This document shows positions 2,369-14,459 of a stretch of DNA of 14,459 nt, one piece after another. Under the pieces are notes generated by a model, which did not search any database, was not told the origin of the DNA, and saw nothing but the letters and a program-made list of their open reading frames with translations. Made by a program: the position numbers and the translations under genes. Position 1 is the first letter of the stretch. Each line of letters opens with the position of its first letter. The DNA lies in the NCBI GenBank assembly GCA_964590575.1, contig CAZPWM010000080.1, positions 1 through 14,459 of the forward strand, given 5' to 3'. This DNA is from an uncultured archaeon (GTDB lineage Archaea > Asgardarchaeota > Thorarchaeia > Thorarchaeales > Thorarchaeaceae).

Positions 2369-3394
2369 CTATTCGTCAGCTCGCATCTTCACAATTTTCC
2401 CTTGAGCACTCTTTGGAATCATCAAGTCACGTATTTGTTCAGCCAAGGGTTCTATGTCCTCAGGGTCGTAATTTGACATCACAATGAAAGTATAACCCAG
2501 TTTGAAGAACTTGATATAGAGTGCAGTCAGTCCCGGTGCTCCTCCAGCCATGAAGATTGAGCCTGGTTGCTTATTTGGGTCTGCATCTAGTGGCATATAG
2601 ACCCTCTTGGAATACTCTGAGTTCAGGAGAATTTCCTGTGCAACTGCTTTATCAAAAAGAGCCCAGTCCCTTACTGTTGAATATCCCCCACCAGCAGGAC
2701 TACCACGACTTCCAATTACAAAGATGTTACTTCTTCTATTGGTTGGATTGATTGAGCAATCTGGCATATGCCTAGTATATCCAGTTGCTAGGTTCGGTGT
2801 TACTGAATCCACTTCATAATGATGCGACTCTTTCATACCTGCTGGTTTGTAGATATTCTCTTTGACATAATCATAGTAATCCATTCCTGAAACTGCCTCA
2901 ATGATTAATCCAAGCACAACATAACCAGCATTGCTGTAGTTCCACTTCTCTCCAGGTTCAGATACGAGTGGGTCCTCGATGAAGAATGGAACGAAGTCTG
3001 ATACCTTTCTGAGTTTTCCTAGAGCCGCATCAAACTTGTCACCAAAGTAGTTTCCCATTCCTGATGTGAATGAAATCAGATGTCTGATCTTCACCTTTGA
3101 TGCGATGTCTTCTCTGAAATCTGGAAGATGTTTTCCCACTAGGTCATCTAAGTCCAGCTTGCCTTTCTGAACAAGTTGAAGGATAGCCACTTTTGTGACG
3201 AGTTTATTCAATGATCCAATGTTGAATTTCGTGTAAATCCTATTGGGTACATTGAATCTCTTGCACGCAAAACCATAAGCTCTCTCGAATATCACCTTGT
3301 CCTCTTTTGCTACAAGAACTGTGCCTGAGAACTTGTCCTTCTCAACTTGTTCTTCAAGGATTTTCTGAAACTTATCTGCATCGAATTTTGACAC
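2369..3394 (-). CDS. Serine hydrolase, beta-lactamase/AmpC-like (D-peptidase) family, cytoplasmic
   Basis: FNIGSLNK (SxxK), WNYSNAGY (YxN), IRHLISFTSG, PAGGGYST, MAGGAPG at the third-motif position. GTG start with GGAGGA upstream. No signal peptide. Confidence 0.92.
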   Translation of the reverse strand: MSKFDADKFQKILEEQVEKDKFSGTVLVAKEDKVIFERAYGFACKRFNVPNRIYTKFNIGSLNKLVTKVAILQLVQKGKLDLDDLVGKHLPDFREDIASKVKIRHLISFTSGMGNYFGDKFDAALGKLRKVSDFVPFFIEDPLVSEPGEKWNYSNAGYVVLGLIIEAVSGMDYYDYVKENIYKPAGMKESHHYEVDSVTPNLATGYTRHMPDCSINPTNRRSNIFVIGSRGSPAGGGYSTVRDWALFDKAVAQEILLNSEYSKRVYMPLDADPNKQPGSIFMAGGAPGLTALYIKFFKLGYTFIVMSNYDPEDIEPLAEQIRDLMIPKSAQGKIVKMRADE

Positions 3395-7201: not shown

Positions 7202-7783
7202 ATGGGATATCAAGAACGTGAGCCTATTGAGGCTACAGTGGCTGAATTAAAGCCAAGAATGAAGAATGTAACCATATCTTTCAAAGTGGTTGCTATTGGT
7301 GAAGAACGTGAGGTAACATCCCGCAACGATGGGGTGACTCACCGCGTTGCTGACGCAACAGTTGGCGACTCAACTGGATGTGTTCAAGTACCATTATGGG
7401 ACTCCTCTCTAGATGAAGTTACAGCAGGTACAACCTACACTCTGAAGAACGGATATACAGGCCTGTTCCGTGGAAACCTTCGACTCAACATCGGCAAGTT
7501 TGGTGAACTAGCTGAAGCTGAGGAAGCCATTGAAGAGGTCAACGAAACAGTTGACATGAGTGCCGAAGAACACGAAGATGACCGTCGTCGAGGCGGTTAT
7601 GGTGGTCGCAGTGGCGGCTACGGTGGTAGGGATCGTCGTGGCGGTGGTGGCGGCTACGGAGGCGGCGGCGGCTATGGTGGCGGCGGCCGAGGTGGCGGTG
7701 GCTACGGAGACAGCGGCGGTGGCGGCTACGGTGGTAGAGATCGTCGTGGCGGTGGCGGCGGCGACAGACGACGTAGATACTAG
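7202..7783 (+). CDS. ssb: Single OB-fold single-stranded nucleic-acid-binding protein (archaeal SSB/RPA-like) with a long Gly/Arg/Tyr-rich C-terminal tail
   Basis: VAELKPRMKNVTISFKVV...VADATVGDSTGCVQVPLWD...LKNGYTGLFRGNLRLNIGKFG matches archaeal single-OB SSB. Acidic linker, then a GYG/RGG tail at residues about 128-193. Confidence 0.9.
   Translation: MGYQEREPIEATVAELKPRMKNVTISFKVVAIGEEREVTSRNDGVTHRVADATVGDSTGCVQVPLWDSSLDEVTAGTTYTLKNGYTGLFRGNLRLNIGKFGELAEAEEAIEEVNETVDMSAEEHEDDRRRGGYGGRSGGYGGRDRRGGGGGYGGGGGYGGGGRGGGGYGDSGGGGYGGRDRRGGGGGDRRRRY
7611..7762 (+). repeat. 44-nt direct repeat (7611-7654 and 7719-7762, 2 mismatches) within the GGN-rich SSB tail
   Basis: gtggcggctacggtggtag(g/a)gatcgtcgtggcggtgg(t/c)ggcggc occurs twice, 108 nt apart, encoding GGYGGRDRRGGGGG. 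Confidence 0.9.
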
Positions 7784-7856: not shown

Positions 7857-8134
7857 GACTCAATCCGAGAGAGAATCAGAGAAACCATTGCCTTGGAGGC
7901 ATTAGGTGGAGTAAAATTATAGTCCTCCTTTTCTCGCTGTAACTTGTAGTTGATACTGGCTTTCTTGAATTCAACTTGTATTCTCTCAAAGTCCTTCTTG
8001 GTCGTTCGAAGACCGAAACAGTATCTCGAGAGTATTTCATGCCTTTTGGCTGTGAGCCAGAGTTCTTTCAATAGAACTGATTCTCCAGCCTCAGCTACGT
8101 TTATTGTTATCCCTTTATGGACTGAGTAATTCAC
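7850..8134 (-). CDS. Hypothetical 94-aa protein, possibly a truncated remnant
   Basis: GTG start overlaps the upstream TGA (GTGA) and the ORF fills the gap to the ssb terminator. No recognised motif. Confidence 0.45.
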   Translation of the reverse strand: MNYSVHKGITINVAEAGESVLLKELWLTAKRHEILSRYCFGLRTTKKDFERIQVEFKKASINYKLQREKEDYNFTPPNASKAMVSLILSRIESK

Positions 8135-9342
8135 CGTTGAAATCGTCGTCTAAGAAATACAATTGGTAAGGGGAGAATTAAGATGACTAAAATTGACACA
8201 TTGATGATTACTAATGGGTCAATAGGAACCGGTCCTTCTGATGCTGGTATCACATACTCGATCACAAAGTAATCTGAGGGATGCCAGTCCTCATCTTGAA
8301 TATCTCCTGTGAACACTACAACGATGTCTTCTTCTGGTAGAACGAAGATCTTCTGTTCATAATGACCAGTTGCCTCATAAAATGTGTACCCTGGGATTCC
8401 CCACCATGTGTATCCATAGTTGTACCACGAACCAGTGTCATAATACATTTGCGATGAAACATTGACCCATTCTGAAGAAACTACCTGGGTTCCATTCCAG
8501 TTTCCCTCGTTTAGATAGAGAAAAGCAAAACGAGCCATGTCCCTTGGTTTTAGGTTCAATCCTCCGCCACATCCATATTGCAAGTTTGCAAAAGGCTTCC
8601 ACCAAGTGAACTGATTAATTCCAATGGGGTTGAATAAAAACTCCTCTGCAAAATCAGCGACTCGATATCCTGTTGTCTGTTCAATGACTCCTCCTAGGAG
8701 CTCAATACCCCCGGAGTTATACTCCCACTGCTCTCCTGGGTCACATGCCATTGGTCTGTCTAGGACATACTCCCACATGTCTGGACTATCATACATGGCA
8801 AATAGATCATTTGCTGGATCTGTATAAGGAATATCTACTTCATGAAACTCAAGCCCTGTTGACATTGTCAAACAGTGGTACAGAGTGATATTCTCCTTTC
8901 TTGGATCCCAGTTATCAATTGTATAATTCGGGAAAAAGTCGAGGATTGGTTGACTCACATTGTCGATATAGCCCATATCTATGGCTATCCCGATGAGAGC
9001 TGACATGAAGCTCTTTGTGCATGACTGAATTGTATGCAACATGTATTGTGTCCAGTATTGGTAGTATTTCTCATACACAATGTAACCATTCTTGATTACA
9101 ATTACCGAATCCACTTCGATTTCATTTTCAGTAATTGTTTCATCAATACGATTGAGAGTGTTAGAGTCCAATCCCTGTTCTTCGGGAGTTGTGTTTAACC
9201 ATGCTACCGTTGGCCAATAGTCCCTGACACGTTCTTCTTGCGCCACTGAATATCCTTGAGTTGGAACTACTTGTATCATCAGTAGAATTGCACAAATTGC
9301 AATGATTGACACAATATGATTATCTCTTTTCATTTGATTCAC
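8131..9342 (-). CDS. Exported, C-terminally membrane-anchored serine hydrolase (beta-lactamase/NylB-like family), paralogue 2; alternative ATG start at 9333
   Basis: N-terminal hydrophobic signal, YWPT..W...TPEEQG, HTIQSCTKS (SxxK), LTMSTGL, WEYNS (YxS), LKPRDMARF, YGYTWW, ATGHYEQ, C-terminal TM followed by RRRFQR. Confidence 0.92.
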   Translation of the reverse strand: MNQMKRDNHIVSIIAICAILLMIQVVPTQGYSVAQEERVRDYWPTVAWLNTTPEEQGLDSNTLNRIDETITENEIEVDSVIVIKNGYIVYEKYYQYWTQYMLHTIQSCTKSFMSALIGIAIDMGYIDNVSQPILDFFPNYTIDNWDPRKENITLYHCLTMSTGLEFHEVDIPYTDPANDLFAMYDSPDMWEYVLDRPMACDPGEQWEYNSGGIELLGGVIEQTTGYRVADFAEEFLFNPIGINQFTWWKPFANLQYGCGGGLNLKPRDMARFAFLYLNEGNWNGTQVVSSEWVNVSSQMYYDTGSWYNYGYTWWGIPGYTFYEATGHYEQKIFVLPEEDIVVVFTGDIQDEDWHPSDYFVIEYVIPASEGPVPIDPLVIINVSILVILILPLPIVFLRRRFQR

Positions 9343-10262
9343 ACCAGCACAATCGTAAGGACAAGTCCAAGCCAGTAACTCAGAGCGATGTATGCCATGA
9401 ACCAGTTTCTTGACTTAGATTCGGAATAATGCGTCTGCCATAATTTCCTACCAAGTACAACGAACAATGCAAACATGGCAAAGACAACCAAGAAACTAAA
9501 AGCTAACACACCTGCAAGGTTGGGAATCATTCCTCCTATGGTGACCATATTGGAATATACCAGCTCAGCGTTTCCAAAGGCAAGAGCAAATGCATAAGCA
9601 AAACAGCTAATAGCTTCTTTGGTAAAGATTGTCATCCCTGTCATGAAGAAGAACATAGAGGGCAAGAATGAATGACGGATTCTCTTGACTGCGAGTGGTA
9701 TTAGATAAACGGTTCCAATCCCTGCAGAGATCAAAAACATGACTGCAACTAATGTCGTAAGGAAATCGGGATTGTCTGTAAAGCCCGCAGTGAAGAATAT
9801 CCAATTCCAGGTTTCATGGTATGTAAACAATCCCGACCACGGGAGAGCTCCAATCCATCCTGCGATGTATGGGGTCTGGAAGACTATGCTTGTCACAATC
9901 CGAAATTCCCCTGTGCTCCCTTGTTGCACTGGAAGGAGCAGGTCAAACATTACCTCGTAGAATTCTCCAATCCCGAAACTGATAAGGAATAATACGATTC
10001 CGAGATAATAGAAGAATATCTTTACCTTGGTGTTTCTCCACCCTGATGCTTGTGCCTGATCTGGATCATCATCCGAAGTTTTGGGGGTGGAAGGATCAAT
10101 CTGAGGGGGGGTAACCAAGTATGAGAGATATCTCCTTAACTTGCTGCCAGACACTGTCTTCAACCAAGGTGTGACTAGGATAAACAAACACACTGCGATA
10201 ATAGGCAGTGCAATTGCTATGATAGTTGCTTGGTCGACTGTGAGCTCGAGAAATTGTATCAT
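9339..10262 (-). CDS. Uncharacterised multi-pass membrane protein (about 6-7 TM)
   Basis: 307-aa ORF with several long hydrophobic segments and a Trp/Gly-rich loop (AGWIGALPW...YHETWNWIFF). 2-nt gap upstream, 4-nt overlap downstream. Confidence 0.8.
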   Translation of the reverse strand: MIQFLELTVDQATIIAIALPIIAVCLFILVTPWLKTVSGSKLRRYLSYLVTPPQIDPSTPKTSDDDPDQAQASGWRNTKVKIFFYYLGIVLFLISFGIGEFYEVMFDLLLPVQQGSTGEFRIVTSIVFQTPYIAGWIGALPWSGLFTYHETWNWIFFTAGFTDNPDFLTTLVAVMFLISAGIGTVYLIPLAVKRIRHSFLPSMFFFMTGMTIFTKEAISCFAYAFALAFGNAELVYSNMVTIGGMIPNLAGVLAFSFLVVFAMFALFVVLGRKLWQTHYSESKSRNWFMAYIALSYWLGLVLTIVLV

Positions 10263-10264
10263 TA

Positions 10265-11503
10265 TTATGTTAACTCCTGGAATTGATTGCTGATTCTGAG
10301 TCTATACTTGGGCACTGCGTAAAAGATAGGTAAGAAGATGGCACCAATAACTACTAAGTTGATTGCATTTGCGACCATCACTTGTCTGGGAATCTTGTTA
10401 ATTGCTGATGGGACGATGTAATCGTATAGAAGCCATGGCTGTAGGTCTGACTCATCTGGTGGAACACTCGAGGTGAAAACCACGACCATGTCCAAGCTTG
10501 GGACTACAAAGATAAACTGTCCTTGATAACCCCGGGCAGTATAGGCATTGGCGATATCGTTAGTGTAAGTCCACCACTGATACGAATACCCCGTGAGGAT
10601 GTCGAATGGTCGAAGAGTAGCCTTTGATTGTTGTACCCATTCTTCAGGAACGATTTGTTCGCCATCCCATGTTCCGTTGTTCAGATAGAGATATCCAAAT
10701 TTCGCCATGTCTCGGGGAAGCATTTCTACTCCTCCTGAAGCCCAATAGAAACCTTGGTTGTCCGTAGGCCAAAAGACATCCGCAGGTGATATGCCAAGGG
10801 GAGTAAACAGCTTTTCCACAGCATAGTCAAAGAGTGAGGTTCCCGTTGCCTCCGTAATGATTGCTCCTAACAGATTAGTTGCTCCTGAGCAGTAGACCCA
10901 TCTTTCACCTGGATCATACTGCATAGGTAAATCAAGAATGTACTGCACATTATCGCTTGCAAACCACATTTGGTAGTTGCTATTCAGTGGGGAATTGTAA
11001 GGTTCAGTCCATTCATCCCACTCTAGTCCTGCAGTCATAGTTAATAGATGTTCAAGGGTTATCGATTGTTTTCGCTCGTCAAGATTCGCGATTGTTCGGT
11101 TCGGTAGGAGATCAACTAACTTACTATCTACACCCTCAATGTAACCTTCTTCAATCGCAATTCCCACAAGCGCTGAAGTGAAGCTCTTTGTGCATGAGTG
11201 AATGATGTGGCGCGTTTCGGAATTATAGAATCCGGGATATTCCTCAAAAACCAGGTAGCCATTTTGTACAATCAATATGGAGTCAATGAGCAGACCAATG
11301 TTATCGATATACTCCATCATATCATCCAATAGATGCTGGTTCATCCCCTGTTCTTCAGGGGTGGTGTTTAGCCACCCATCTGTCGGCCAATAGTCTCGAA
11401 CCACATCGGTTTGTGCAAGTGAATAACCCTGACCTGGAACAATCGGCATCATCAAGAGAACTATGACAATGCCGATGAGTGACGCAGTCTTTTTCCAGAG
11501 CAA
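10265..11503 (-). CDS. Exported, C-terminally membrane-anchored serine hydrolase (beta-lactamase/NylB-like family), paralogue 1
   Basis: Signal-like MLWKKTASLIGIVIVLLMMPIVPG, YWPTDGWLNTTPEEQG, HIIHSCTKS (SxxK), LLTMTAGL, WVYCS, MLPRDMAKFGYLYL, ARGYQGQ, C-terminal TM. TTG start. Confidence 0.92.
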   Translation of the reverse strand: MLWKKTASLIGIVIVLLMMPIVPGQGYSLAQTDVVRDYWPTDGWLNTTPEEQGMNQHLLDDMMEYIDNIGLLIDSILIVQNGYLVFEEYPGFYNSETRHIIHSCTKSFTSALVGIAIEEGYIEGVDSKLVDLLPNRTIANLDERKQSITLEHLLTMTAGLEWDEWTEPYNSPLNSNYQMWFASDNVQYILDLPMQYDPGERWVYCSGATNLLGAIITEATGTSLFDYAVEKLFTPLGISPADVFWPTDNQGFYWASGGVEMLPRDMAKFGYLYLNNGTWDGEQIVPEEWVQQSKATLRPFDILTGYSYQWWTYTNDIANAYTARGYQGQFIFVVPSLDMVVVFTSSVPPDESDLQPWLLYDYIVPSAINKIPRQVMVANAINLVVIGAIFLPIFYAVPKYRLRISNQFQELT

Positions 11504-11505
11504 TG

Positions 11506-12159
11506 TTATACCGCCTCTGACTCAATTTTCCTGAGATAACGTGAGATTAGATCGTGCCACTCAGAGAGTGTTCTCTTGTAGGTGGCATCTTGTGAAAGGA
11601 GAAACTGAGACATTCTGTATGACACATCGCTTCGAGTAGATGGAGGAAGGCTTTGGAACGCATGATTGCCTGGAGAGTCATATACTTTGGATACCTCTGC
11701 TTCTCTGTCGACCAATCTCTGCAAGATGGATCGCGCATGGTCAATCTCTGATTGAGTGATGTGAATGCCAAGTGTCGAGAGACCGAGAAGTGCAGCCATT
11801 ACTTGGTCTTTTGAAGCAACAGGTGCCTCATCATATGAACTCATTCTCTCACTTATGCCTAATCGGAACTCTCTAGCGACGGCTCGATAGTATCGCTCAA
11901 CAATACCCCTAGTAGTTTCACGAGTTTCTACAAGATCTATTATCCCTGCACTCTTCAACTTCTGAACATGGTGAAGCACTGTACCAGGTTTCTTCTTCAT
12001 TGCAACGGAAAGCTGCTTTACAGTCATCGGTTGATTGACGAGATGCTTGAACACGATGTCTCTTCTTGTCCCATCAAGCAAGAGTTTGATAATCTTTGGA
12101 TTTGTAACTACTTCGAATTCCTTGATTGGTTTGTGTGATACGACTGGATTCATTTTCAC
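11506..12159 (-). CDS. ArsR-like winged-helix transcriptional regulator
   Basis: IKLLLDGTRRDIV...PMTVKQLSVAMKKKPGTVLHHVQKLKSAGII...RGIVERYYRAVA is a typical archaeal ArsR/HTH_20 pattern with a C-terminal extension. Confidence 0.9.
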   Translation of the reverse strand: MKMNPVVSHKPIKEFEVVTNPKIIKLLLDGTRRDIVFKHLVNQPMTVKQLSVAMKKKPGTVLHHVQKLKSAGIIDLVETRETTRGIVERYYRAVAREFRLGISERMSSYDEAPVASKDQVMAALLGLSTLGIHITQSEIDHARSILQRLVDREAEVSKVYDSPGNHAFQSLPPSTRSDVSYRMSQFLLSQDATYKRTLSEWHDLISRYLRKIESEAV

Positions 12160-13109
12160 CTGCCTCCTTCATCTTGTGTGTAAGTTGCATCAACTTTAGC
12201 TGTCAGAATCATGTAGATTCTTGTGAGTATAATTGAAACGGCTGGAATCACAACGAAGAGCAAGGCGATAACAGCTAATGGTCTATAGGGTTCCAAGAGT
12301 ACTTCAGGAAGGAACGGACTCCATAGGAATGCCAATTCATTCAATATCGGAAGAAGTGGTACTCCAACTATTAGAACGATGATGAACCAAGCACCTAGTA
12401 CACGACCCGGGAACTGACATGTGAGTCTAACAGATCTTGCAGCCGCTCGTACCGCTGATAGACCGTCGATAATTCCTGGAAATGTGAGAGAAAGCATCCC
12501 GTTTACTAAAACTATCCAAACGAAAATCATTGGGATTAGTAGTTCAAGCTCCTCGTTCGTAGGAGGATTCCATGTGGGGTAGGAAATAGCTAGGAATGCG
12601 AGAATGAGGGGGGCAAGTGTGATAATGAAATGCAGAATCCCTCCGCCCAGTAATGATAACCCTCTCTTTCCGTACCATGAAAATGCACTTTCTGCTTGAG
12701 TTCCATCACTCTCCACAATCTCTCGAGCCATTCCAAATAAAGCCCCGAGGGCTATGAAGAACGGTCCGAGTAGTGGCAAAATCAGGAACATGATTAGCAA
12801 GATTAGTGTGAGACCACCTGTCGCGGTGAACCCTGCAACAACTGATTCTACTAGCCAAATCAAGAATGGCAGTCCCATCGTGAATAGAATTGGGATTAGA
12901 ATGAATAGTAGAATTAACACAAGAAGAAGGGCAGTGACTAGCAATATACCTAGCATAGCCAACCCAAAGGATAGAATATTCCTTACAGCAAGTGTGAAGC
13001 CCACTTTGAAATCTTTTAATATCCCACTTGGTGGTGGCGCAGCGGAACTTGTTTCTGTGAATTTTCTATCATCGTCTGGTGAATCTGGATAATTACTTGG
13101 CCAACTCAT
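12156..13109 (-). CDS. Uncharacterised multi-pass membrane protein (about 6 TM)
   Basis: Pro/Ser/Asp-rich N-terminus, then hydrophobic helices and a FPGIIDGLSAVRAAARSVRL motif seen in generic 6-TM envelope proteins. GAGGT ribosome site upstream. Confidence 0.85.
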   Translation of the reverse strand: MSWPSNYPDSPDDDRKFTETSSAAPPPSGILKDFKVGFTLAVRNILSFGLAMLGILLVTALLLVLILLFILIPILFTMGLPFLIWLVESVVAGFTATGGLTLILLIMFLILPLLGPFFIALGALFGMAREIVESDGTQAESAFSWYGKRGLSLLGGGILHFIITLAPLILAFLAISYPTWNPPTNEELELLIPMIFVWIVLVNGMLSLTFPGIIDGLSAVRAAARSVRLTCQFPGRVLGAWFIIVLIVGVPLLPILNELAFLWSPFLPEVLLEPYRPLAVIALLFVVIPAVSIILTRIYMILTAKVDATYTQDEGGR

Positions 13110-13127
13110 AATGAGACCTCTCTATTA

Positions 13128-13171
13128 CTAAGAAAGAAGGGTGTGACCCCACCAGAGAATGATGGGGTCAC
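13128..13171 (-). terminator. Hairpin plus pyrimidine tract (terminator or attenuator) between small gene A and the six-gene operon
   Basis: Minus strand GTGACCCCATCA-TTCTC-TGGTGGGGTCAC (13171-13143; 12 bp with 1 G-U) followed by ACCCTTCTTTCTT. Confidence 0.7.
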
Positions 13172-13226
13172 TGAGGAGATAGATAGTGTATTGGTCGGGA
13201 TGGAAAGAAATACCATTTACGTCAAC

Positions 13227-13580
13227 TCATCGAGTAAATTGAAGCGATACATCTCGATCATCTGAAGCCTTGATTCGTGCCATCTCGGTAGAAAGCTCCG
13301 CATCTTCCCAGATCCCTGGGTTGATTGGATCTCCATACTTTAAGTATTGAATCAGACGTGCTTCATCGTAGACCTTGCTTGCTGCTGCAACTCCCCCGGG
13401 AAGAGCTAATACTATAGCCCCAGGGACAAGAGCAACTAGATACAGTAGACCTACTGTACCCGCAATGGCGGCAAGTATCCTGACCGCACGGCCAGCAATG
13501 ACTCGATTGAGAGAGAAACTAAGGGTTTCCTGAGGAGTGACATTGACTGTTTCCTTTACCTTGATTCGTGCATTGTACAT
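13227..13580 (-). CDS. Hypothetical 117-aa membrane protein, paralogue A
   Basis: Ungapped alignment with 13748-14101 (32/117 identities by hand count). Central hydrophobic stretch. GTGGTG ribosome site. Confidence 0.8.
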   Translation of the reverse strand: MYNARIKVKETVNVTPQETLSFSLNRVIAGRAVRILAAIAGTVGLLYLVALVPGAIVLALPGGVAAASKVYDEARLIQYLKYGDPINPGIWEDAELSTEMARIKASDDRDVSLQFTR

Positions 13581-13660
13581 CGTTTAACACCACGCGAACA
13601 CCGAATCGGTCCGGATTTCCGGAACGATGCGTTTTTCCCTATCGTTCCATAGAATCAAAT

Positions 13661-13684
13661 CTATATAAAGTGTTTGGTCAGCGC
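13661..13684 (-). promoter_or_regulatory. Archaeal promoter (conserved upstream/BRE element plus TATA) of paralogue A
   Basis: Minus strand GCGCTGACCAAACACTTTATATAG; matching copy upstream of paralogue B. Confidence 0.7.
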
Positions 13685-13696
13685 CAAACGTTAGAC

Positions 13697-13729
13697 AAAA
13701 ACGGCATGAGAAACATGCTTCCTATGCCG
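13697..13729 (-). terminator. Hairpin plus U-tract terminator after paralogue B
   Basis: Minus strand CGGCATAGGAAG-CATG-TTTCTCATGCCG (one A-C mismatch, two G-U pairs) followed by TTTTT. Confidence 0.65.
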
Positions 13730-13747
13730 GGAAAAAACCAATAGTGA

Positions 13748-14101
13748 TTATCGAGTATAACCTTGGAGGGTACCAGGTCTATAATGAGACCTCAGACGAG
13801 CCATCTCTGTTTCTGACTCAACATCGTCCCACTTGCAATCCTCAGTGGTCATATTGCATCGCACCCATTGAATCAGTTCCGTCTCGTCCCGGATCTTGGA
13901 TATCAGGGTAACTTCAGCTGGAAGCACAAACAACACTAACCCTGGTAGAACTGTAAGAGGGAGCAACATCAAACCCGCTAGTGCAATGCAGATTGCACAG
14001 CGAATTGACCTCCCAAAGATGAAGCGTTTCAGGAGCGGCTTCGGCACCACAGCATACCGCAGTTGCTCCGGAACAACTTTAGAACGCTGAAACTTATCCA
14101 T
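13748..14101 (-). CDS. Hypothetical 117-aa membrane protein, paralogue B
   Basis: Same length and motifs as 13227-13580 (GR..R, PG.....LP, SK..DE..LIQ, W.D.E..TEMAR, terminal [F/Y]TR). GTGGTGA ribosome site. Confidence 0.8.
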   Translation of the reverse strand: MDKFQRSKVVPEQLRYAVVPKPLLKRFIFGRSIRCAICIALAGLMLLPLTVLPGLVLFVLPAEVTLISKIRDETELIQWVRCNMTTEDCKWDDVESETEMARLRSHYRPGTLQGYTR

Positions 14102-14142
14102 TGTTTAATTCACCACACGATACAATATGTTGGATGAATTGA

Positions 14143-14165
14143 TTATATAGCTCTTTGTTCAGCGC
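14143..14165 (-). promoter_or_regulatory. Archaeal promoter (conserved upstream/BRE element plus TATA) of paralogue B
   Basis: Minus strand GCGCTGAACAAAGAGCTATATAA; 11 of the first 12 nt match the paralogue A element. Confidence 0.7.
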
Positions 14166-14252
14166 AATATCTATTCTATTTTGCATCGAGCTAGCGCAAG
14201 AAAGGCTTTTCACTATGCGATACATCATAGACATCCCTAAGGAGATACTCAC

Positions 14253-14459
14253 GTGAGTGGCTTACAAAGAGCAGTGGTGAAGGTACTCATTCTCGTACCT
14301 CTTGCTGTATTTGCCATTCTCTTCGCAATTGGTCCTGGACGCATTGTATCGTATACTCCAGCCACAAGAGTTGGGGTTCATACGGTACTTACCTTTTGGA
14401 TCTCTATTCCAGCTGCTTTAGGGGTACTAGCCTATCACAGCAGACCTTTGCGTGCAAAT
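14253..14459 (+). CDS. N-terminal part (3'-truncated by the window) of a membrane protein; not in the ORF track
   Basis: AGGAG at 14240-14244, GTG at 14253, open to the window end: MSGLQRAVVKVLILVPLAVFAILFAIGPGRIVSYTPATRVGVHTVLTFWISIPAALGVLAYHSRPLRAN, with two hydrophobic helices. Confidence 0.7.
   Translation, partial: MSGLQRAVVKVLILVPLAVFAILFAIGPGRIVSYTPATRVGVHTVLTFWISIPAALGVLAYHSRPLRAN

Follow-up and report, generated by a model that had tools for sequence, protein, structure and literature searches.

We analysed a stretch of 14,459 nucleotides (hereafter the window) from an uncultured archaeon of the Thorarchaeaceae (assembly GCA_964590575.1, contig CAZPWM010000080.1), with the focus on two small genes that follow one another on the minus strand. 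The upstream gene, up117 (the 'up' paralogue; 13748-14101), and the downstream gene, dn117 (the 'dn' paralogue; 13227-13580), both start with ATG and encode 117 amino acids, ending in YTR and FTR, respectively. Both open reading frames (ORFs) had been claimed in an initial annotation of the DNA and both are present as it described them. Its hand count of 32 identical residues out of 117 (around 27%) was reproduced exactly by a gapless comparison, and the sequence blocks that it had named (L.R.I.GR..R, PG.....LP, SK..DE..LIQ, W.D.E..TEMAR and FTR/YTR) were all found in both sequences. Its description of the pair as unannotated stands for function only; relatives are already deposited in NCBI records of metagenome-assembled genomes (MAGs), where they are called 'hypothetical protein'.

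None of 10,000 shuffles of one of the two sequences reached 32 identities (mean 7.5, maximum 18), and BLASTP aligned residues 24-117 of the proteins with 35 identities in 95 positions (37%, E 1e-17). Comparisons with related loci revealed purifying selection on both genes, the ratio of non-synonymous to synonymous substitution rates (dN/dS) being 0.07-0.21 in the 14 of 16 comparisons that were not too saturated to compute; even in these dS was around 1 or more and thus near saturation. The values were 0.075-0.21 for up117 (nine of ten comparisons computable) and 0.07-0.15 for dn117 (five of six), with one comparison of saturated dS for each gene. More than 100 relatives retain the frame and its length of 117 codons, and a Shine-Dalgarno-like GGTG lies upstream of both starts. 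Because of the BLASTP match, the excess of identities over every shuffle and the low dN/dS, it is firm that up117 and dn117 are real protein-coding genes and paralogues of each other.

Family limits and database searches

Asgard genomes hold many lineage-specific genes of unknown function and commonly encode orphan small membrane proteins. The initial annotation had recognised no known family for the pair and had suggested profile searches together with AlphaFold and Foldseek as a check, and these returned no strong match to a characterised family. Neither up117 nor dn117 matched any family in Pfam (E≤0.01), NCBIfam (E≤1), PHROGs (E≤1) or PADLOC (E≤0.01). When 102 family members were compared with Pfam at E≤10, sub-threshold names alone were retrieved, most commonly Ntox27 (19 of 102, best E 0.0093) and DUF6113 (16 of 102, best E 0.0011); both were rejected, the examples examined scoring 12.7-18.2 bits against cut-offs of 24-27 and covering the hydrophobic segment. 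A profile of the 102 sequences gave no usable match among PDB sequences (best E 0.89, to a 39-amino-acid photosystem subunit), and a Foldseek search of the PDB with the dn117 model, itself poor (predicted template modelling score, pTM, 0.28), gave no match at E≤10. The best feature score for up117 in the ESM Atlas was 0.86, to unnamed clusters, with no usable match for P0094, and tblastn against 50,697 phage records found no match to up117 or dn117.

Word-seeded searches retrieved 56 relatives of up117 and 74 of dn117. A filter-free phmmer search with dn117 against 1.84 billion cluster representatives yielded ten matches at E≤1e-3, one of which (P0064, 556 amino acids, E 9.9e-5) is a tandem-repeat protein without a membrane segment and was dropped as spurious; no fused forms appeared in the length-unrestricted phmmer search with dn117. 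The 102-sequence profile matched 128 proteins. Among the 120 matches listed, all were 73-177 amino acids long, and those with a name came from MAGs labelled Thorarchaeota, with a few from Sifarchaeia or Promethearchaeota. Every named relative is annotated as 'hypothetical protein', and one locus is labelled Hermodarchaeota. Twelve loci were recovered from species-representative genomes, of which 11 (L001-L011) are true members; the remaining one (L012, a 309-amino-acid ORF of a Terriglobia bacterium) matches the N-terminal flank and the first hydrophobic arm only and, with an hhalign probability of 39% and 11 bits against the family hidden Markov model, is not a relative.

The family amounts to about 130 clusters at 90% identity, distributed over three paralogue lineages. 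Because all named matches derive from Thorarchaeota-type MAGs and none falls in a curated family, we regard up and dn as a lineage-restricted orphan family of predicted small membrane proteins, confined to Thorarchaeota-type Asgard archaea. Searches by homologue locus tags and by Thorarchaeota or Asgard membrane topics found no published account of the family among the papers listed, as judged by title and the opening of the abstract, and passages of two papers (PMC5847659, PMC9804665) contain no mention of such small membrane proteins. We file the family as new because no described family or fold fits it; this novelty is by elimination, and would reflect a lack of matches, not a new mechanism.

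The up and dn clades

In a quick maximum-likelihood tree (104 rows, few columns, the careful search being unfinished), the up clade of 37 rows stood apart from all dn-type rows with 98% support in the Shimodaira-Hasegawa-like approximate likelihood ratio test. Given this separation, we take the duplication to be old relative to the sampled genomes.

The two clades also differ in diagnostic residues. Glu63, which lies within the hydrophobic segment, is present in 39 of 39 rows of the up clade and His106 in 37 of 39, while a C35-x-x-C38 motif marks the N-terminal edge of the membrane segment (C35 in 37 and C38 in 31 of the 39). Cys82 and Cys89 are both present in 13 of these rows and both absent from 25, with a single one in just 1; they could form a disulfide or, together with C35 and C38, a four-cysteine metal site. 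The dn clade lacks cysteine in 58 of its 65 rows, carries small residues at positions 37, 40, 41, 44 and 62-67 and has glycine at position 63 in 50 rows. dn117 itself is without cysteine; small residues line its membrane segment on either side of the centre (A37, A40, G41, G44 / G62, G63, A65-A67), and its loop reads Y82-G83-x-P85-x-x-P88-G89. An up-like gene occurs alone in L007-L010, and L011 keeps dn without a full-length up. Such solo up-like copies had not featured in the initial annotation.

Sequence conservation and the C-terminal tail

The fixed length noted at first held among relatives, 79 of the 135 collected being exactly 117 amino acids long; longer relatives are probably mostly the result of mis-called starts, and shorter ones are fragments. 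Conservation at single positions was counted in an alignment of 102 rows (A1). Pro53 and Pro61 are invariant (102/102), as is Glu73 (101/101), and Arg31, Gly54, Glu99 and Arg102 are each found in 100 of 102 rows. They are followed by Leu60 (99), Leu24 (98), Trp91 and Glu95 (97 each), Ile28 (95), Arg34 and Asp72 (94 each) and Arg26 (91), and a lysine or arginine at position 69, directly after the hydrophobic segment, is present in 97 of 102. Conservation thus peaks at juxtamembrane, membrane and helix-2 positions, and residues 2-22 and 104-114 are the variable parts.

The initial annotation had proposed two C-terminal signatures, a TEMAR motif and a terminal [F/Y]TR, and both survive in relaxed form. 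Of TEMAR, only Glu99 and Arg102 are near-invariant, and on the column counts in relatives the motif reduces to [TSA]-E-x-x-R. By the same counts the terminal tripeptide becomes aromatic-x-[RK]: position 115 is phenylalanine or tyrosine in 94 of 99 rows and position 117 arginine or lysine in 94 of 97, and the middle threonine is not conserved (serine 36, threonine 35 and alanine 11 of 97). Raw sequence ends agree, with aromatic-x-R in 50 of the 56 up-type sequences (51 counting one VIR) and aromatic-x-R/K in 72 of 79 dn-type sequences; the remaining ends belong to fragments or divergent members (MTF, IIV, RFP, FTI or FSM). The aromatic-x-Arg tail was not found on other proteins of the cluster.

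It had also been suggested that the proteins are precursors of released peptides, an idea that found no support because selection acts on the whole length, no leader/core pattern is seen and maturation genes are missing from the surroundings. The strongest conservation lies in and beside the membrane segment and not in a leader, and the genes nearby encode neither a maturation enzyme nor an exporter from any known peptide system. A precursor of the type found among ribosomally synthesized and post-translationally modified peptides was rejected on the same grounds, namely low dN/dS over the full length, no conserved leader with a variable core and no neighbour in a maturation or exporter family.

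Architecture and membrane topology

Residues 1-34 are basic (9 K+R vs 2 D+E in up, 6 vs 2 in dn) and end in L24-x-R26-x-I28-x-G30-R31-x-x-R34. The 33 residues that follow (35-67) are uncharged in dn and, save for Glu63, also in up, and have Pro53-Gly54 at their exact centre as well as L60-P61. Residues 68-117 are acidic (10 D+E vs 7-8 K+R) and are predicted to form a helical tail of around 50 residues, on which the invariant positions fall on single helix faces (D72/E73; W91, E95, E99 and R102 at i, i+4, i+8 and i+11) and whose aromatic-x-Arg/Lys C-terminus is free.

Hairpin scaffolds have a hydrophobic segment of around 30-35 residues with a central helix breaker, and residues 35-67 with P53-G54 have both. 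Several further features favour a hairpin. Basic residues are conserved at both ends of the segment (R34 and K/R69); R34 and D72/E73 each lie 19 residues from P53-G54; the small residues of dn mirror one another about the turn (G44/G63, G41/A66, A40/A67); and the invariant basic residues R26, R31, R34 and R102 balance the acidic D72, E73, E95 and E99. From this pattern of residues we lean, by a little, towards a tight helical hairpin with both ends cytoplasmic over a single span.

Covariation (mutual information with average product correction) was computed in search of hairpin contacts and was uninformative, since columns that are hypervariable or linked to clade dominated it. No marked amphipathic helix lies outside the membrane segment, where hydrophobic moments are 0.08-0.32, and a prediction of an up117-dn117 heterodimer (alignments A2 and A3) scored 0.00, which speaks neither for nor against binding. 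In class III signal peptides, a short basic N-terminus leads to a [KR]-[GA] cleavage site, and the hydrophobic helix starts immediately after it. A type IV pilin-like assignment was rejected, G30-R31-x-x-R34 leading into the hydrophobic segment at residue 35 without a [KR]-G/A junction.

Gene neighbourhood

Downstream of dn117, on the same minus strand, the first gene is TM317 (12156-13109), which encodes a polytopic membrane protein without a family match. Its stop overlaps the start of ArsR217 (11506-12159), an ArsR-family winged-helix protein (Pfam HTH_5, E 1.1e-7; HTH_20, E 1.4e-7) that has a C-terminal extension of around 110 amino acids and no cysteine. Blac412 (10265-11503) and Blac403 (8131-9342), both minus, encode beta-lactamase-family serine hydrolases (PF00144, E 7e-40 and 4e-31), both of which carry a signal or anchor at the N-terminus and a membrane anchor at the C-terminus, and between them lies TM307 (9339-10262, minus), another polytopic protein. 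The pair is therefore situated, as had been proposed, upstream of an operon with a regulator and two surface hydrolases, the former of the ArsR family and the latter membrane-anchored members of the beta-lactamase family. This order is firmly conserved: TM317 directly follows dn in all eight dn-holding loci (the window, L001-L006 and L011), ArsR217 comes next in 7 of the 7 loci long enough to tell, and TM307 and the beta-lactamase-family hydrolases follow where the contig allows.

On its other side, up117 is divergent from a gene of which the window holds the first 69 codons (14253-14459, plus strand) and whose full product would have around 743-758 amino acids. This gene, absent from the initial annotation, is back-to-back with up in seven of eight loci (the window, L001-L005 and L011). 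In related loci it has 743-758 codons, encoding a polytopic domain of around 520 amino acids and a C-terminal histidine-kinase-like part, and it is complete on the minus strand at L001:1-2310, L002:5610-7850, L003:410-2653, L004:451-2682, L005:700-2931 and L011:5354-7630. The 69-residue fragment of the window is 60-78% identical to the N-termini of the full-length proteins of L002-L005 and L011. All five queries, drawn from four loci (four C-terminal fragments plus a single full-length protein), gave collinear, sub-threshold matches to histidine-kinase models, with a best E of 1.1e-7; one of them had a single weak non-kinase match, to a TraA relaxase (E 0.079). Pfam returned HATPase_c for one of four sequences (E 0.011) and nothing at E≤0.01. 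We consider the divergent gene a probable histidine-kinase-like sensor; no response-regulator gene was seen near it.

The usual motifs of the beta-lactamase family are S-x-x-K and Y-x-N. In their translations, Blac403 and Blac412 keep the former (SCTK) and read Y-N-S and Y-C-S at the usual site of the latter, and a third, soluble paralogue in the window (2369-3394, minus) reads Y-S-N there. Farther from the pair, an Ssb-like OB-fold protein (7202-7783, plus; PF21473, E 2e-12), syntenic in L002-L006, ends in a Gly/Arg-rich tail of around 70 residues with repeated GGYGG and RRGGGG units. The window also encodes an HdrA-like flavin and iron-sulfur oxidoreductase with Pyr_redox_2 and 4Fe-4S domains (248-1993, plus), which is unrelated to the pair, and directly after it a small winged-helix protein (1994-2341, plus).

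Non-coding elements

The non-coding DNA around the two small genes is itself firmly conserved. Upstream of up117 lies a 35-nt putative promoter block (14133-14167, minus; consensus TTGCGYTGAACAAAGAGCTATATAATCAATTCATC) with a TATA-like box at 14142-14149. It is near-identical in the window and L001-L006 and recurs before the solo up-like genes of L007-L010, standing around 40-75 nt 5' of the up-type start in L001-L010, and it is conserved far above the synonymous sites of the up gene, even across differing genomic contexts. Just past the up117 stop, a consensus scan found a terminator-like hairpin with a T run (13704-13718, minus); L001 and L003-L006 have one in the equivalent place, with differing stem sequences.

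The putative promoter region of dn117 (13662-13689, minus) comprises a hairpin, GTTTGG..CCAAAC (13672-13689), followed by a TATA-like box, CTTTATATA (13662-13670, minus), in which T80, T81, A82, A84 and T85 are invariant columns in eight sequences. In L002, these elements stay adjacent to dn despite a gene inserted between up and dn. Between the TATA-like box and the start codon lies an inverted repeat, GGAACGAT-N12-ATCGTTCC (13621-13648, minus). The octamer GGAACGWT has four matches in the window vs 0.55 expected, and GAACGWT-N10-14-AWCGTTC occurs in the window and once each in 6 of the 12 loci, where it is confined to a place 62-67 nt 5' of the dn start codon. The position of the repeat suits an archaeal repressor site, in line with an established pattern. 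The repeat may be an operator-like site, possibly for ArsR217, or else a structure in the 5' leader. Rfam gave no match in 12900-14459 (E≤1), and the dn leader was not called an RNA element because the one 8-pair stem found by RNAalifold, with its single compensated pair, is too little.

The spacer between dn117 and TM317 (13110-13226) has a mean column identity of 76% across eight genomes, above the expectation for neutral DNA given a dS of around 1 or more, and contains an invariant TCTATCTCC. Within it a 12-bp hairpin, GTGACCCCA..TGGGGTCAC, is followed by a T-rich run (13143-13171, minus); stem changes in L003 and L006 preserve the pairing, and the spacer is without a clear TATA box. We read it as a candidate terminator or attenuator that would pass some transcription from the dn promoter into TM317, ArsR217 and the hydrolases. 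Terminator-like sites number five in 13000-14459, vs 1.1 +/- 1.2 in shuffles. Both small genes seem to form transcription units by themselves, with putative promoters and terminator-like elements of their own that had not featured in the initial annotation.

Possible roles of the up and dn proteins

Our favoured explanation, which we put forward tentatively, is that up and dn lack enzymatic activity and, tethered to the membrane, act as adaptors or modulators of the sensing cluster next to them. The hydrophobic segment would form a tight helical hairpin with cytoplasmic N- and C-ends and would dock within the membrane on polytopic neighbours, up on the histidine-kinase-like sensor and dn on TM317, while the charged tail would offer a docking face to a cytoplasmic partner, either the kinase core or ArsR217. 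In an ArsR-controlled unit whose operator would be the inverted repeat, dn117 would lie closest to the promoter, and the hairpin and T run past dn117 would lower read-through into TM317, ArsR217 and the hydrolase genes. We infer the topology, partners and regulatory role of the pair, along with the operator and attenuator functions, from the architecture, synteny and conserved elements described above.

Several observations weigh against this explanation. The proposed contacts of up and dn with partners are predictions only. AlphaFold2 models built from the family alignments have a continuous helix running through P53-G54, at residues 21-84 in up117 (predicted local distance difference test, pLDDT, 67.5; pTM 0.26) and 21-82 in dn117 (pLDDT 74.1; pTM 0.28), and such a helix is as compatible with a single span as with a hairpin. 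The models say little because this helix and the second helix show no tertiary packing and the pTM values are low. The uncharged arms on either side of P53-G54, of 18 and 13 residues, are on the short side for two complete spans; acidic residues prevail in the C-terminal domain; and the co-varying Cys82/Cys89 of 13 of the 39 up proteins might form an extracellular disulfide. As to the proposed partner, the kinase models matched by the divergent gene (BaeS, PnpS, CreC, PhoR, CpxA and PorY) were reached with scores far below the curated cut-offs, and a profile search of PDB sequences with its product retrieved no kinase. The promoter, operator and attenuator roles, for their part, are putative readings of conserved sequence and of consensus scans.

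The exceptions to the synteny count on the same side. In L006 the pair is present with other genes in place of the kinase-like gene. L011 keeps the kinase-like gene and dn, with up reduced to a 68-codon remnant (L011:7615-7821); the remnant retains only the last 30 or so family residues and has lost its stop codon, in an otherwise intact cluster. L002 has a 296-amino-acid gene on the opposite strand (8448-9338, minus) between up and dn, which lie 1174 nt apart. In L007-L010 the up-like gene stands alone among housekeeping genes, namely a 2H phosphoesterase, a DUF998 protein and an ORF that looks thiolase-like by eye. Neither paralogue strictly needs its partner paralogue or its neighbours.

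Small membrane proteins that modulate sensor kinases are known from enterobacteria, namely MgrB, SafA and MzrA; they are non-enzymatic and are encoded beside, or controlled by, a membrane sensor. In the present family, up is back-to-back with the histidine-kinase-like gene in seven of eight loci, a likeness that would hold if this gene encodes a sensor. Unlike the enterobacterial proteins, up and dn occur as paralogue pairs, and up-like copies also stand solo without a kinase-like neighbour; there is no sequence relation between the two groups; the kinase assignment here is sub-threshold, and binding to the kinase is only predicted. Compared with MgrB and SafA, up and dn are larger; further differences are their Pro-Gly segment of 33 residues and an acidic tail that is conserved among them. 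In the SdpR/SdpI system of Bacillus, a polytopic protein tethers an autorepressor of the ArsR family to the membrane. The translational coupling of ArsR217 to polytopic TM317 and the operator-like inverted repeat at the first promoter of the unit resemble this arrangement, but ArsR217 scores 21.8 bits vs a cut-off of 100 for the SdpR model, TM317 belongs to no family, no toxin gene is found here, and SdpR/SdpI has no counterpart of the small up and dn proteins. We rejected a circuit of the SdpR/SdpI type on the ArsR217 score and the unmatched TM317.

Among the alternatives, the one that survives best, unlikely as we hold it to be, is that up and dn are self-sufficient monotopic hairpin wedges whose oligomers, formed via the charged tails, organise the membrane or bend it; the synteny would then be incidental or a matter of co-regulation only. 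A segment too short for two full spans with an invariant central helix breaker fits this, as do the mirrored small-residue motifs of dn, which are common where helices pack tightly. Both genes have a strongly conserved putative promoter of the TATA type and a terminator-like hairpin to themselves, as would be expected of abundant stand-alone products, and the solo up-like genes of L007-L010 point the same way. Caveolin, stomatin/SPFH proteins and reticulon are monotopic hairpin membrane proteins. The likeness to caveolin, stomatin and reticulon lies in the hydrophobic segment of around 33 residues, its central helix-breaking proline and the charged juxtamembrane residues on both sides. Neither up nor dn matches PF01146, PF01145 or PF02453 at any threshold tried, however, and no sequence or fold relation links them to any hairpin scaffold family; AlphaFold2 gave no hairpin, the extra-membrane segments lack a marked amphipathic helix, and oligomerisation and membrane bending are for these proteins only hypothetical. 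The tie of dn to TM317 in eight of eight loci also speaks against free-standing wedges.

Rather more doubtful is a single-span protein with its N-terminus inside and C-terminus outside, whose exposed aromatic-x-Arg tail would serve in recognition or processing, for instance by the neighbouring membrane-anchored, peptidase-like hydrolases of the beta-lactamase family; this corresponds to the processing-signal and released-peptide idea of the initial annotation. The uninterrupted AlphaFold2 helix across the hydrophobic segment in both models would be expected of such a protein, and the basic N-terminal flank (most marked in up) and net acidic C-terminal domain accord with this orientation, as does the co-variation of Cys82 and Cys89, which fits a disulfide. 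The aromatic-x-basic end is conserved after a variable spacer, and the two hydrolases encoded downstream have outside-facing domains. Against these stand the lysine or arginine right after the segment, as for a cytoplasmic flank, and the absence of a leader/core pattern from a protein under purifying selection throughout; moreover, known peptide-maturation or export genes are missing nearby, solo up-like genes have no adjoining hydrolase and other proteins of the cluster are without the tail.

We give very little credence to a role as small pores or ion-conducting proteins, either holin-like or with a carboxylate path through Glu63 of up, dn being a non-conducting partner. Class II holins are small, with a hydrophobic hairpin-like segment, a charged C-terminal tail and a possible two-gene arrangement. 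up and dn share their small size, hairpin-like segment, highly charged tail and possible two-gene arrangement, and the paralogous pair recalls holin/antiholin gene arrangements; the Glu63 found throughout the up clade sits inside the hydrophobic segment. The comparison fails on context: there is no PHROGs match and none in the phage records, no phage or lysis genes lie nearby, and the chromosomal position is conserved across species-level genomes, while dn mostly has glycine at position 63. A membership among class II holins was rejected for these reasons.

A slightly longer shot still is that up and dn constitute a monotopic hairpin scaffold that is specific to Asgard archaea, evolved independently and is functionally analogous to the eukaryotic wedges of caveolin or reticulon type, in which scaffold both proteins would co-assemble through their charged tails and aromatic-x-Arg ends into a membrane-organising coat with its expression set by the adjacent sensor/ArsR cluster. 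Finally, the ORFs might not be genes and might owe their similarity to duplication of non-coding DNA, or to a conserved regulatory region in which ORFs arose by chance. This idea can point to the lack of family matches and of a confident fold and to the unusual conservation of the flanking DNA, but is effectively refuted by the dN/dS values at near-saturated synonymous sites, with the retained frame and codon number, the GGTG before both starts and the coherent membrane-protein architecture also against it. A large remainder of the probability we reserve for an explanation not yet imagined.

Significance

With its precise motif set and unusually conserved putative promoters, the up/dn family is a candidate for a new Pfam or DUF entry. 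Its paired and solo paralogues, the striking conservation of its promoters and its context of a sensor and an ArsR regulator with surface hydrolases give it added interest, and the 35-nt promoter block, the operator-like inverted repeat and the conserved hairpin as a candidate attenuator offer testable cis elements. Should up and dn prove to be accessory modulators of a sensor or regulator, this would give the bacterial small-protein regulators, a class about which little is known in archaea, an archaeal counterpart; should they prove to be monotopic hairpins, they would bear on how the membranes of Asgard archaea are organised.

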